Part shown: piece after piece, positions 60,117 through 64,000 of the stretch
Layout of the letters: every line of letters starts with the position of its first letter
Position numbering within the stretch: position 1 is the stretch's first letter
IMG/VR virus record: IMGVR_UViG_3300021387_001464
Span: 1 to 64,000 of that record
Strand: one strand, 5' to 3'
Length of the DNA stretch: 64,000 bases
DNA from: a virus
Taxonomy: Duplodnaviria > Caudoviricetes
Notes under the pieces: model-generated
Seen by the model: the letters and a program-made list of their open reading frames with translations, nothing else
The model's database searches: none
Told to the model about the DNA's origin: nothing
Program-made: the position numbers and the translations under genes

Positions 60117-60503
60117 ATGAACAAATTCCAAAAGGGCGATATGGAAGAAATACAGGATGCTTGCAGCGAGGGCAAGGAATTTTACTTAGACAGCCCTGAT
60201 AGTGACCGTAGGGCGTTCTTCAAGTTTGGAGGAACGACTTATTTCATTACGCGGGATGGCAAGGTGCTCTCATCGCGAGGCGACGGGTATCGCGAGCACG
60301 AGATTGCGCAGTATAATGGCAAGGGTTATCGTCGTGTACGGCTACGTGGCAAGACATTCAAGGTTCACCGCCTGGTGGCCGAGGCATTCGTGCCCAACCC
60401 TGACAACTTGCCCTATGTGCTGCACATTGACGGGGACCGCGAGAATAACATCTGTAGAAACCTGGAGTGGTCCGCAAAGCAGAGCAACCACCATGGGAAG
60501 TGA
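60117..60503 (+). CDS. HNH (HNH_3/NUMOD4-type) endonuclease
   Basis: VHRLVAEAFVPNP..V.HIDGDRENN...NLEW. Confidence 0.9.
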   Translation: MNKFQKGDMEEIQDACSEGKEFYLDSPDSDRRAFFKFGGTTYFITRDGKVLSSRGDGYREHEIAQYNGKGYRRVRLRGKTFKVHRLVAEAFVPNPDNLPYVLHIDGDRENNICRNLEWSAKQSNHHGK

Positions 60504-60575
60504 AAAGTGAAAAGTGAAAAGTGAAAAATTTCTTGCTTAGGCAAGCGTACTAAAGAAACGATTAGCTACCGCCGT

Positions 60576-60730
60576 ATGAGTTATGTCGATAAACCCATCA
60601 TCCTTGGCAGGTACAGCCCGAGTCAGAATGGCATAGTGGTAAGCCCACGCGGACCCGCACTCTGCCTTGCAGGGGGGGTAACGGACACGATACGGACAAG
60701 CCGAAAATACTGATAGAACATGAATTGTAA
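60576..60730 (+). CDS. TRD-like mini-gene 1, frameshifted (G7; G8 restores)
   Basis: MSYVDKPIILGRYSPSQNGIVVSPRGPALCLAGG|GNGHDTDKPKILIEHEL*. Confidence 0.7.
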
Positions 60731-60863
60731 AACAATGCTATTGAATCCACAGGGGGGGGTATGCCGCACCATCAAGTCACAGTATTACAAAAGCAGCGTG
60801 GCGAATTTCCTGCTGCAGACCACCAGAGGAGCAACGGCAGTATTGATAGAATATGAACTATAA
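60720..60863 (+). CDS. TRD-like mini-gene 2, in frame (G8)
   Basis: MNCKTMLLNPQGGVCRTIKSQYYKSSVANFLLQTTRGATAVLIEYEL*. Confidence 0.75.
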   Translation: MNCKTMLLNPQGGVCRTIKSQYYKSSVANFLLQTTRGATAVLIEYEL

Positions 60864-61078
60864 GCGCATACCGAAGCCAGCGAACCTGCGAGACCATACA
60901 CCGAGTATGGCCGAAGCATTGCCCTATATGATAGAGGCGTGCGGTTTGAGGGGGGGGGTGTTTGTTCGACTATCGCCACTTTGTGTACGACACCATCGAC
61001 GGATGCTACCCGTTCCCAGTGACCACAAGGATTCATGCCAGTAATCAGATTTGGCTATGCAAAGAAATAGAACTTTAA
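60853..61078 (+). CDS. TRD-like mini-gene 3, frameshifted (G9; G8 restores)
   Basis: ..ACGLRGG|CLFDYRHFVYDTIDGCYPFPVTTRIHASNQIWLCKEIEL*. Confidence 0.6.
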
Positions 61079-61092
61079 AACAAGATAAAAGA

Positions 61093-62598
61093 ATGATTGC
61101 AAAAGTTTATCCAGATGGGCATCCTGACTTGCAAGGCAAGAAGGACCCGACGCACCCAGTGCGCTATTTCGACATCCGTAAACTCACTCCACGCAAGTGC
61201 TATTCACTGATGGGCGTGCCGCCGCAGCAGATCGACACGCTGATGAAAACCGAAAAGAAACCATATATGGCATGGGTGGGCGTAGATGCCGAACTGGCTG
61301 TGTTCGGACTGGAGCCGAGTGCCACGCGCCGCGAGGTCGATGAAGCATATCGCGAGGCTATCGAGAGTCTAAGAAGACCCACCCCCGACCCCTCCCTGGG
61401 CGAGGGAGGGGAGTGTGAAGACCCCGACAGACCCACCCCCATGCACCTCCCTGCTGAGGGAGGGGAGTGTGAAGAGCCTGAAATGAGCGAAGAGGAGGTG
61501 GCCCTGATGCGTGAGAACTACGATATGAACTACCAGCGCATCATCGCTGCCAGCCAGGAGCAGCGTTACGGTGACGTGCAGATTATTGCCAACTCGTCGC
61601 ATTACAAGCTGGCGGGTAACTCCATCGTCTGCGACGTGCTGATGTATATCTACGAGGAACTGATGTACCCGACGGGCCGCCGACTGCCGCAGGAGCAGAC
61701 CGACCTGTTCGCCCAGCCGCAGTTCCGGCTGACCCGAAACTGGAAGAAAGAGCCGCTGAAGTTGGTAACACTTTGCAGCGGCTACGACTCGCAGGCAATC
61801 GCTATGGATATGCTGCAACAGCGCTATCCGGACTTCCGATGGGAACTGAAGGCATGGAGCGAGTTCGACCCCGAGAGCAGCCGGCCACTGGAAGAGCAGC
61901 CCGCCGTGGTGGCCCATAATCTGCTGTTCCCACAATACAAGGATTTGAACCGTGGCGACATGACCAAGGCCGACTGGAGCGACCTCGCCGATGCAGGTAT
62001 CGACCTGCTGACATATAGTACTCCGTGTCAGTCCATCTCACAGGCTGGCAAGCGAGAGGGTATCAAGAAAGGTAGTGGCACTCGCAGCGCCGTGCTGTGG
62101 AGCACCGAGATGGCGGTAGAGCATCTGCGACCGAAGGTGCTATTGCAGGAGAATGTGCGGGCGCTTATCAACAGCGTGAACATGCCCGACTTCCGCGAGT
62201 GGTGCAGCCTGCTGGAGAGCTACGGCTACGTGAACTTCCTCGCGCCATCGTTCCCGACGGTCTGGGGCACCGACAAGCGCGACAAGAAGACCGTGCCGGG
62301 CATCCTGAACGCCAAGCATTATGGTGTGCCACAGAACCGCGAGCGGGTGTATATGGTCTCCATTCGTGCCGACCTGCTCGGTGGCACGCAGTATGAGTTT
62401 CCCCGTCCTTTCCCGCTCGACAAGTGCATTGCCGATGTGCTGGAGGATAATGTCGATGAGCGTTTCTTCCTGAAGCCCGACTCGGTAATCAAGTTCCTCA
62501 CAGTGAATGAATCGACTGACAGTAACGATATACACTATACGGTAACGGACCACAAACTCTCCGATGAAGAAATCGCCAAGATTCGTAGTGGAAAGTAG
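61093..62598 (+). CDS. circularly permuted DNA (cytosine-5) methyltransferase lacking an internal TRD
   Basis: Motif order IX (IRKLTPR..LMG), X (YKLAGNSI), I (LCSGYD), IV (TPCQ), VI (QENV), VIII (PQNRERVY), then a short tail. Confidence 0.9.
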   Translation: MIAKVYPDGHPDLQGKKDPTHPVRYFDIRKLTPRKCYSLMGVPPQQIDTLMKTEKKPYMAWVGVDAELAVFGLEPSATRREVDEAYREAIESLRRPTPDPSLGEGGECEDPDRPTPMHLPAEGGECEEPEMSEEEVALMRENYDMNYQRIIAASQEQRYGDVQIIANSSHYKLAGNSIVCDVLMYIYEELMYPTGRRLPQEQTDLFAQPQFRLTRNWKKEPLKLVTLCSGYDSQAIAMDMLQQRYPDFRWELKAWSEFDPESSRPLEEQPAVVAHNLLFPQYKDLNRGDMTKADWSDLADAGIDLLTYSTPCQSISQAGKREGIKKGSGTRSAVLWSTEMAVEHLRPKVLLQENVRALINSVNMPDFREWCSLLESYGYVNFLAPSFPTVWGTDKRDKKTVPGILNAKHYGVPQNRERVYMVSIRADLLGGTQYEFPRPFPLDKCIADVLEDNVDERFFLKPDSVIKFLTVNESTDSNDIHYTVTDHKLSDEEIAKIRSGK

Positions 62599-62784
62599 TG
62601 CTGTGCTGCGGGGCGTGCGGACAGAGCACGCCCGTGCAGTACGCCGTATCTACGGTGACAGGGGGGGTACTGCCACTTCTCGGACCGCAACTACCTGCCT
62701 GCTACCGATGGCTGCAGCAACACCATCACTGGCGTACAGAAGGACAACCTATTGATAGTTGAATATGAATATAAAGAGTGTTAA
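62564..62784 (+). CDS. TRD-like mini-gene 4, frameshifted (G7; G8 restores)
   Basis: ..VRTEHARAVRRIYGDRGG|YCHFSDRNYLPATDGCSNTITGVQKDNLLIVEYEYKEC*. Confidence 0.75.
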
Positions 62785-62908
62785 GCCCTACGACGATTAC
62801 AATTCTACCCCCCCCCGACGCGATGGTGTCATTGGCACCGTTACAAGGCAAATTGGAACATCAGCACCAAGGAACGGCTGGAAAATATTGATAGAGTATG
62901 AAATATAA
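62765..62908 (+). CDS. TRD-like mini-gene 5, in frame (C9)
   Basis: MNIKSVKPYDDYNSTPPRRDGVIGTVTRQIGTSAPRNGWKILIEYEI*. Confidence 0.75.
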   Translation: MNIKSVKPYDDYNSTPPRRDGVIGTVTRQIGTSAPRNGWKILIEYEI

Positions 62909-63062
62909 CAGGATATTGCAAATAGGCAACCTTACTGAAGGTGCAGGCAGAAACAACCCGCAGCGCAGAAGGCTCTACTCGCCCTATGGCATTGCACCAA
63001 CGGTGTACGGCTATCAAGGCGGTGGCAATTTGCAACCCTTGGTATTGATAGAGTATGAGTAG
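62898..63062 (+). CDS. TRD-like mini-gene 6, no homopolymer
   Basis: MKYNRILQIGNLTEGAGRNNPQRRRLYSPYGIAPTVYGYQGGGNLQPLVLIEYE*. Confidence 0.8.
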   Translation: MKYNRILQIGNLTEGAGRNNPQRRRLYSPYGIAPTVYGYQGGGNLQPLVLIEYE

Positions 63063-63255
63063 CGTTACCCCCATATTGCGGCAAGTCCCTGTTCGGCGAG
63101 TGCGGACGGAATGGGCAAAGGCCATCCGACGAGAGACGGGCACCAACCCGTTTCAAGCCAAACAACTGGAGGAGTTTGTGTCGGACTACATGCCTACCAT
63201 CACCGCCAGTGCAAACATCGAGAACTACATAAAGGTAGAGTATGATATTGATTAA
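63055..63255 (+). CDS. TRD-like mini-gene 7, no long homopolymer
   Basis: ..VRTEWAKAIRRETG..MPTITASANIENYIKVEYDID*. Confidence 0.75.
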   Translation: MSSVTPILRQVPVRRVRTEWAKAIRRETGTNPFQAKQLEEFVSDYMPTITASANIENYIKVEYDID

Positions 63256-63424
63256 AGAAACGATGCCCAACGAAGACCGCTTCCCTGTCCGTATCTCAGC
63301 AAGTCGTGGCAGGGGGGGGCAAAGACCGTTCCATCAGGTCATTGAACTCGGATCGTCGCAAGCCACAAACACCATCACATCAGTACAAAAAGATAATCTG
63401 GTATGGATAGAGCGAGATATTTAG
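63242..63424 (+). CDS. TRD-like mini-gene 8, in frame (G8)
   Basis: ..SASRGRGGQRPFHQVIELGSSQATNTITSVQKDNLVWIERDI*. Confidence 0.8.
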   Translation: MILIKETMPNEDRFPVRISASRGRGGQRPFHQVIELGSSQATNTITSVQKDNLVWIERDI

Positions 63425-63556
63425 TTGGCGTACATCCGTTCTCTCACGCTTTGGAGTGTGAGGGCAAAATATGGGGGGGGGCAAATCAGTCCTGCCCTGC
63501 GGAGTACGGATTATAAATGTCCTCATTGTGTATTGATTGAGTATGAAGGAGTTTAA
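63403..63556 (+). CDS. TRD-like mini-gene 9, frameshifted (G9; G8 restores)
   Basis: MDRARYLVGVHPFSHALECEGKIWGG|QISPALRSTDYKCPHCVLIEYEGV*. Confidence 0.75.
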
Positions 63557-63723
63557 GTTTATTGGATGGACACGGCTCGGCAGTGGAAAAGGTGACGTAT
63601 CAAAGTATCATCTGCGCCACTACTGTAACGCCATAACCTCGTTTGCAGGGGGGGGGTATTGGCAAGGATTCGCAGACTGGAATGTATAACACCACACCGT
63701 ATGTATTGATAGAATATGAGTAA
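63543..63723 (+). CDS. TRD-like mini-gene 10, frameshifted (G9; G8 restores)
   Basis: MKEFKFIGWTR..YCNAITSFAGG|GIGKDSQTGMYNTTPYVLIEYE*. Confidence 0.75.
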
Positions 63724-63911
63724 AGAAAAGAAAGTTCGCCGATGCGACAACATTGCAGGGAAGTGGATGCCCGATGGCTCTATCCGCTTCTACCAAATGA
63801 ACGAGCGGAAAGGCGGTGTGCCCGAACTTGTCAACGGCTACGCTGGGGGGGGTCATGCCCTGTATCATAGCAGGCCATGAGCATTATGTTATTGTAGATT
63901 ATGACCTATGA
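63716..63911 (+). CDS. TRD-like mini-gene 11, frameshifted (G8; G7 or G10 restores)
   Basis: MSKEKKVRR..PDGSIRFYQ..GYAGG|VMPCIIAGHEHYVIVDYDL*. Confidence 0.65.
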
Positions 63912-64000
63912 GTAACGTCAAGCATTATCCAACCGACGGGCGACCGTTTCTCTCCACCGCTTTGAGGGGGGGGCAGTTCGTGCTGCAAGTTCGACAAGCC
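63908..64000 (+). CDS. TRD-like mini-gene 12, open through G8, truncated by the window end
   Basis: MSNVKHYPTDGRPFLSTALRGGQFVLQVRQA... Confidence 0.6.
   Translation, partial: MSNVKHYPTDGRPFLSTALRGGQFVLQVRQA

Follow-up and report, generated by a model that had tools for sequence, protein, structure and literature searches.

A phage-encoded, circularly permuted C5 DNA methyltransferase core in which no TRD was detected, and an adjoining array of mini-genes that may supply TRDs in trans

The stretch of DNA that was analysed (the window) comprises the first 64 kb of a 111,678-bp IMG/VR virus record rated complete by CheckV. Towards its end lies the core ORF of a C5 DNA methyltransferase (C5-MTase), 501 aa long and encoded at 61093-62598 on the + strand. 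It is embedded in an array of mini-genes, or cassettes, of about 45-100 aa each, of which there are 15 in total, three upstream and twelve downstream of the core, all in direct orientation. The array runs past the window to genome position 64682, and an SSB-like gene is next. The start of the core was placed at ATG 61093 and not at TTG 61051 because the N-terminus MIAK[IV]YPDG is common to its relatives; in an alignment of 60 homologues M1 and I2 are nearly invariant. When the complete virus genome was scanned for PF00145, one gene was found, the core itself (114 bits). A search of a phage GenBank collection returned no protein match spanning at least 80% of the core, and no DNA relative of window positions 36000-60000 was found there. 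The features recognized in the core gene, with the means by which they were assigned, are as follows.

61093-61173, + strand: N-terminal lead, 27 aa, two short strands, ahead of motif IX (AlphaFold2 model)
61174-61224, + strand: motif IX, IRKLTPRKCYSLMGVPP (phmmer, conservation)
61240-61587, + strand: IX-X insert, 110 aa, lineage-specific (AlphaFold2 model, spacing comparison)
61603-61653, + strand: motif X, YKLAGNSIVCDVLMYIY (phmmer, conservation)
61768-61794, + strand: motif I variant TLCSGYDSQ, subfamily-wide (conservation)
62017-62031, + strand: motif IV, STPCQ, with the catalytic Cys (P311 and C312 invariant; phmmer, conservation)
62149-62157, + strand: motif VI, ENV, invariant (conservation)
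62332-62346, + strand: motif VIII, QNRER (phmmer, conservation)
62398-62472, + strand: post-VIII segment, FPRPF...VDERFFL
62473-62595, + strand: C-terminal tail, 41 aa after VDERFFL, comprising a helix, the strand IHYT and a helix (AlphaFold2 model)

The Pfam family PF00145 matched the core with 125.6 bits against a cut-off of 22, over profile positions 42-220 only, which represent motifs II-VIII. Comparison with PDB sequences by phmmer aligned core residues 284-359 with M.HhaI 55-125, and residues 403-459 with M.HhaI 150-206. The same comparison placed residues 28-44 (IRKLTPRKCYSLMGVPP) on M.HhaI 271-287, which is motif IX, and residues 167-187 on M.HhaI 295-315, which is motif X, although neither of these two short matches is significant alone. 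Their assignment is supported by conservation and by the order of the segments: G175-N176-S177 of motif X is invariant and R29-K30-L31 of motif IX nearly invariant among the 60 homologues, and, in a blastp comparison with the best 150 representatives of 50% clusters, 17 proteins (permuted) have the IX and X segments ahead of the core and 78 (canonical) have them behind it. The catalytic motifs P311-C312 (IV), E353-N354-V355 (VI) and Q414/R416/R418 (VIII) are invariant in the same 60 homologues and align to M.HhaI. An AlphaFold2 model of the core, made with the 60-sequence alignment, had a pLDDT of 85.6 and a pTM of 0.81; its residues 215-459 superposed on M.HhaI 1-206 with a VIA-align Z of 17-18 and an rmsd of ~2 A over ~200 aligned residues, and the large-domain fold is present. 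The M.HhaI alignment and the model together bear out the order IX, X, I, IV, VI, VIII that a first-pass annotation had read from the letters of the DNA, and the core is confirmed by sequence and fold as a real C5 DNA methyltransferase with that motif order.

Motif I had in addition been described as atypical, and this description needed to be narrowed. The sequence CSGYDSQ does deviate from the AdoMet-binding FxGxG, of which it keeps only the first Gly, but it is not peculiar to this protein. Among the 150 nearest representatives of 50% clusters, whether canonical or permuted, motif I most often has the form [FC]SGYD[SA]Q, which is the norm for the subfamily.

The ends of the chain proved to be as short as had been supposed, with 27 residues ahead of motif IX and 41 beyond the post-VIII segment, and no TRD in cis was found between VIII and IX. 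In non-permuted relatives motif IX is preceded by a linker, PELQGKK/AELKGKK, and the PDLQGKK of the N-terminal lead matches it; the lead is regarded as a linker stub and not as a TRD. In the C-terminal tail Y482, H487 and E493 are conserved among the 60 homologues; by blastp the tail segment was matched in permuted representatives only, and the TRD-less split core of locus L020 ends similarly. From its sequence the tail is a candidate docking stub for a TRD.

A TRD fold might also have been concealed in the IX-X insert, and it was looked for there. The insert is modeled as a beta-hairpin stalk, three helices and a disordered acidic/proline-rich loop of variable length, the structured parts having pLDDT >90 when folded alone. 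The spacing from IX to X is 142 aa in the core and 110-156 aa in its closest relatives. It is the canonical 32 aa in L008-L011, L014 and L021, 34 aa in L012 and 52-54 aa in L023/L024, and all of these have cassette arrays. Foldseek gave no match to the insert at E <=0.001, the weak rows being J-domains, and VIA-align against 48,161 chains gave a best Z of 6.4 (HscB and other J-domains), with none at or above 8 and no MTase TRD. The best score in the ESM Atlas, 0.78, was uninformative, and Pfam recognized no family at E up to 10 in the insert, the tail or the N-terminal lead. The insert as a hidden TRD was rejected, being absent from many cassette-bearing relatives and yielding no TRD in the fold comparison. 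The start of the insert is J-domain-like (AVFGLEPSATRREVDEAYREAIESL) but without HPD, and the J-domain structural matches are weak (Z 5.5-6.4); as modeled, the insert might be called weakly J-domain-like. It is concluded that no TRD is detected in the core chain and that both ends are stubs of the kind that flank the variable region in ordinary enzymes, in keeping with the earlier proposal that the permutation opens the chain at the variable region and leaves the TRD out.

The cassettes on either side of the core, labeled U1 to U3 upstream and D1 to D12 downstream, are arranged as follows.

60576-60730, + strand: U1, ILGRYSPSQNG...KILIEHEL, frame broken at the G7 tract 60672-60678
60720-60863, + strand: U2, 47 aa, intact, G8 tract in frame
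60853-61078, + strand: U3, frame broken at the G9 tract 60950-60958
62564-62784, + strand: D1, RTEHARAVRRIYGDRGG / YCHFSDR...NTITGVQKDNLLIVEYE, frame broken at the G7 tract 62661-62667
62759-62908, + strand: D2, intact
62898-63062, + strand: D3, intact
63055-63255, + strand: D4, intact
63242-63424, + strand: D5, intact
63403-63556, + strand: D6, frame broken at a poly-G tract
63537-63723, + strand: D7, frame broken at a poly-G tract
63716-63911, + strand: D8, frame broken at a poly-G tract
63908-64000, + strand: start of D9, 84 aa, which continues to genome position 64162
outside the window, up to genome position 64682: D10-D12

Each mini-ORF has its own start and stop and a hydrophobic-hydrophobic-E-Y-E/D tail, the TATGA of which holds the next start codon, and the starts of the cassettes overlap the preceding stops in a stereotyped way. 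In D2-D5 each ATG is embedded in the TATGA of the preceding tail; D1 starts within the 3' end of the MTase gene, the stop of U3 is 12 nt upstream of the core ATG, and D12 is without an ATG. The conservation of Y-E/D in the tails (codons TAT GAn) may partly reflect the embedded start codon of the next gene, and not docking. U1, whose frame is broken here, has intact orthologues in L005, L007, L008, L010 and L014. Just upstream of the operon, between an HNH-endonuclease-like gene (60117-60503) and the first cassette, four tandem GTGAAAA heptamers were observed (60500-60530).

Pfam matched no family in the nine mini-ORFs scanned, and a word-indexed search with D4 against longer proteins found nothing. 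The D4 result is attributed to the limited sensitivity of that search, as cis TRDs for other cassettes did turn up in local blastp against HMMER-derived representatives. In this comparison cassettes of the window matched representatives with E of 1e-7 to 2e-17, and 61 of 64 cassette matches were located in the stretch from motif VIII to motif X of proteins with canonical order. The nearest canonical relatives (P0130, P0131, P0140, P0141, P0150 and P0151), the core of which is ~50% identical, have variable regions of 200-325 aa made up of tandem modules of the cassette types, each ending in hydrophobic-hydrophobic-E-P ('IIEP'-like), and from this composition they look like cis multispecific MTases. 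Cassette families were found fused to permuted cores as well, in L010 (E 3e-9) and L025 (E 5e-7). By these alignments, the mini-proteins correspond by homology to individual TRD modules of the cis multi-TRD relatives. The pooled pN/pS of the cassettes is 0.35 over 73 orthologous pairs, which indicates purifying selection, and the D9 type alone is represented by 67 clusters of stand-alone proteins of 60-88 aa; together with the stereotyped overlap of starts and stops, this argues that the cassettes are real genes.

The junctions between cassettes share a motif, TTGATAGARTATGA, that occurs six times in the window where 0.96 occurrences are expected. Such a repeat would be of use to a storage library, in which only an N-terminal, cis-fused TRD is active and cassettes reach that position by recombination or deletion at TTGATAGARTATGA, or by change of tract length. 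An adjacent cassette is indeed fused in frame to the core in L010-type relatives and also in L005, where the fusion depends on a G8 tract, and the known permuted C5-MTases hold their TRD at the N-terminus (PMC5944983). However, each cassette begins at an ATG of its own that overlaps the stop before it, purifying selection acts also on cassettes distant from the core, whose stand-alone length is constant, and in the window U3 stops 12 nt before the core ATG. With all cassettes in direct orientation, moreover, recombination could only delete, and 12 of the 15 lie downstream of the core, from where N-terminal fusion needs rearrangement. A library of this kind is an unlikely explanation of the array.

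Runs of G or C of at least 7 are concentrated in the array to a marked degree. Of 14 such runs in the 111.7-kb genome, 11 lie within the 3.7-kb TRD array, one per cassette (window 60672-63973, plus genome positions 64331-64340), where they encode Gly-Gly(-Gly) or Pro-Pro-Pro. Among the 11 cassettes with a tract, seven (U1, U3, D1, D6, D7, D8 and D11) lose their frame exactly there in this assembly, and in the other four (U2, D2, D5 and D9) the tract is in frame. As a pattern in the assembled sequence, these breaks would fit either phase variation of individual cassettes or assembly error. Similar tracts occur in L003-L006, and L007-L014 are mostly without them. The core gene of the window has no simple-sequence tract. 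In the core MTase genes of some relatives a poly-C tract was noted where GVPPP is encoded, directly behind motif IX (C10 at L003:5127-5136, where the frame is broken; C8 at L002:193-200 and L004:5095-5102, in frame), and this could possibly serve as a master switch. At L005:4805-6473 the counterpart of U3 runs in frame into the MTase to give a 531-aa ORF, with its N-terminal half in another frame across a G8 tract, an arrangement that would amount to a tract-dependent cis fusion of TRD and core.

Homopolymers are known slippage sites, and it might be supposed that poly-G slippage, or +1 shifts at the TATGA junctions, joins the cassettes into TRD polyproteins or core-TRD fusions that are effectively a cis multispecific MTase. 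Each next ORF is in the +1 frame and starts inside the TAT GAn codons of the previous tail, and a shifted reading would recreate '...LIE-M...' boundaries resembling the 'IIEP' of the cis enzymes. But a dozen efficient shifts in series would be required, the ATGA overlap of stop and start is an ordinary signature of translational coupling, stops follow the tails in all frames used, and in L007-L014 the organization is unchanged without poly-G tracts. Recoding of the array is, on this evidence, quite improbable.

The frame breaks of several cassettes in this assembly, taken with the departure of motif I from FxGxG, could alternatively be read as signs of decay, the core being inactive or non-specific and the mini-ORFs the debris of a multispecific MTase. 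The breaks are found at homopolymer tracts, however, and not at random positions, and the motif I variant is common to canonical members of the family. All catalytic motifs are invariant in the 60 homologues, and the cassettes, besides being under purifying selection, are conserved on many independent contigs of 50-130 kb, so that decay is very improbable indeed.

Metagenomes contain many close homologues of the core (54-91% identity), carried on contigs of 50-130 kb, and the genome-resolved matches point to Bacteroidales hosts, for example Prevotella and Muribaculaceae. All TRD-less permuted homologues sampled, to as little as 43% identity, have mini-gene arrays on their flanks; the permuted loci with arrays are L002-L012, L014 and L021-L024. 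The cores of L008-L011 and L014 carry a single family-B TRD as an in-frame N-terminal fusion, from which it follows that a cis route exists. L025:3398-4954, from a Prevotella MAG, encodes a permuted MTase of 518 aa with about three TRDs N-terminal and one C-terminal, and has no free cassettes; because it carries them fused, the same TRD families can be cis or trans. It had been asked whether permuted homologues always co-occur with arrays. For all TRD-less permuted ones sampled they do, but L025 is permuted and without free cassettes.

The permutation of the core, the homology of the cassettes to TRDs, the selection acting upon them and their co-occurrence with TRD-less cores suggest that the TRDs act in trans. 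The gene is probably the permuted catalytic core of a multispecific phage C5-MTase, with which separately encoded mini-TRDs would dock in turn, and the storage library, recoding and decay are each less likely than this. Motifs IX-X are joined ahead of I-VIII in one chain, and the TRDs are encoded apart, in an operon whose genes are translationally coupled. A single mini-TRD at a time would dock non-covalently with the core, held by the C-terminal tail on one side and the N-terminal lead on the other, and its docking would complete the small DNA-binding domain; the hydrophobic-hydrophobic-acidic terminal strand of the mini-TRD (LIE of LIEYE) is presumed to be the equivalent of the 'IIEP' strand that closes cis TRDs. 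Each core-TRD complex would then methylate a different short sequence, the multiple specificities would protect the phage genome from many host restriction systems, and the poly-G tracts in most cassettes could switch single specificities on and off. The fuller proposal, of a two-component C5-MTase whose permuted core is completed by any of ~15 TRD subunits of 45-85 aa, each homopolymer-switchable, to give a combinatorial and rapidly evolvable anti-restriction methylome, is given a little better than an even chance.

In the textbook view a C5-MTase is one chain with the TRD inserted in it, and the engineering of specificity has been done inside that chain. The Bacillus phages SPR, phi3T, rho11s and H2, studied by the Trautner group, encode multispecific C5-MTases with several short TRDs on one core. 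Those enzymes, like the present core, are phage-encoded, and they have several short TRD modules per core, each for a different target; here fifteen TRD-homologous modules adjoin a single core gene and may serve it. The TRDs of the Bacillus phage enzymes are contiguous in one polypeptide, however, whereas here they form separate, translationally coupled genes and the core is permuted. Type I R-M HsdS and the phase-variable Mod/HsdS 'phasevarions' belong to N6-adenine MTases, with large S subunits and switching of one gene by inversion or SSR. They have no homology to the C5 array and share only the logic of a separate, exchangeable and switchable specificity component.

Natural circularly permuted C5-MTases of 'type H' comprise M.BssHII, M.Alw26I, M2.Eco31I, M.Esp3I and M2.BsaI (PMC5944983). 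They share with the core the placing of IX and X ahead of I-VIII and of the new termini in the variable region. The N-terminus of type H lies between VIII and the TRD, which is thereby kept N-terminally, whereas the core starts after the TRD position, 27 aa before IX; the relatives L010 and L025, with a TRD before IX, are of the type H kind, and the window core has no TRD. Split C5-MTases are also known, M.AquI (alpha/beta) being natural and M.SssI, M.MpeI, M.HhaI and GGCC MTases having been engineered for fragment complementation (PMC5944983). Pieces split at the variable region thus assemble non-covalently into active enzyme (PMC5944983), a precedent that does not extend to a lone TRD. The M.AquI type consists of two polypeptides, I-VIII and TRD+IX-X, whereas in the core IX-X are covalently joined to I-VIII and the TRDs stand alone, so that the TRD by itself would be the free subunit, with many alternatives competing for one core. 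No description of free-standing C5 TRD genes was found in the open-access literature or in bioRxiv, and, while type H, multispecific and split MTases are known, the combination of a TRD-less core with free-standing TRD genes would appear to be new.

If TRDs do dock in trans as proposed, the logic of subunit exchange would be new for C5-MTases, and a small domain could be built from a detachable subunit of 5-10 kDa. Docking of this kind would also account for a possible coverage of many host restriction systems by Bacteroidales gut phages with one enzyme, and one core with plug-in readers would be a toolkit for programmable cytosine methylation.

The first-pass annotation had gone further in proposing the permutation as the structural adaptation that allows TRDs to be supplied in trans. 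The permutation does correlate with the trans arrangement, but free arrays are found at the non-permuted loci L020, L101 and L102, and cis TRDs in permuted L008-L011, L014 and L025. Permutation is therefore not necessary for free TRDs, since the cores of L020, L101 and L102 are non-permuted, and not sufficient, since permuted L010 and L025 have TRDs in cis. Plausibly, what it does is to reduce a three-piece assembly to two, one catalytic chain and one TRD. At L020:3983-5688 (Candidatus Enterocola MAG) the gene order is canonical and the enzyme is non-permuted and fully atomised, into a 265-aa core with I-VIII, five TRD mini-ORFs (with tails such as LIRYE/LIKYD) and an 83-aa ORF with IX-X only that starts with MIAQ. 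Tails of the arrays read EIY in L021 and [KR]Y[ED] in L020. Tails with E pair with MIAK/MITK cores, and the K/R tails of L020 with an IX-X protein that begins MIAQ; a charge swap between tail and core might be read from these sequences, though, as a single contrast (L020), no more than as a lead.

Two-piece, M.AquI-like split multi-TRD MTases or frameshifted genes were found at L029, L031, L040, L041 and L047, in Bacteroidales and other gut genomes; L040 is Paramuribaculum intestinale DSM 100749, a cultured strain. The architectures can be set out as a series (cis multi-TRD, two-piece split, atomised, permuted with free TRDs, permuted with re-fused TRDs) that illustrates the routes open to permutation and splitting. 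In L101 and L102 the non-permuted core is followed by at least 10 mini-ORFs and then by a TRD+IX-X ORF. The cores of these two loci (L101:2714-4552 and L102:2720-4558), each of 613 aa, contain an apparent intein of ~330 aa with a homing-endonuclease-like middle, positioned exactly at the catalytic Cys of motif IV (STPC|FVAG...VKN|CQSIS).
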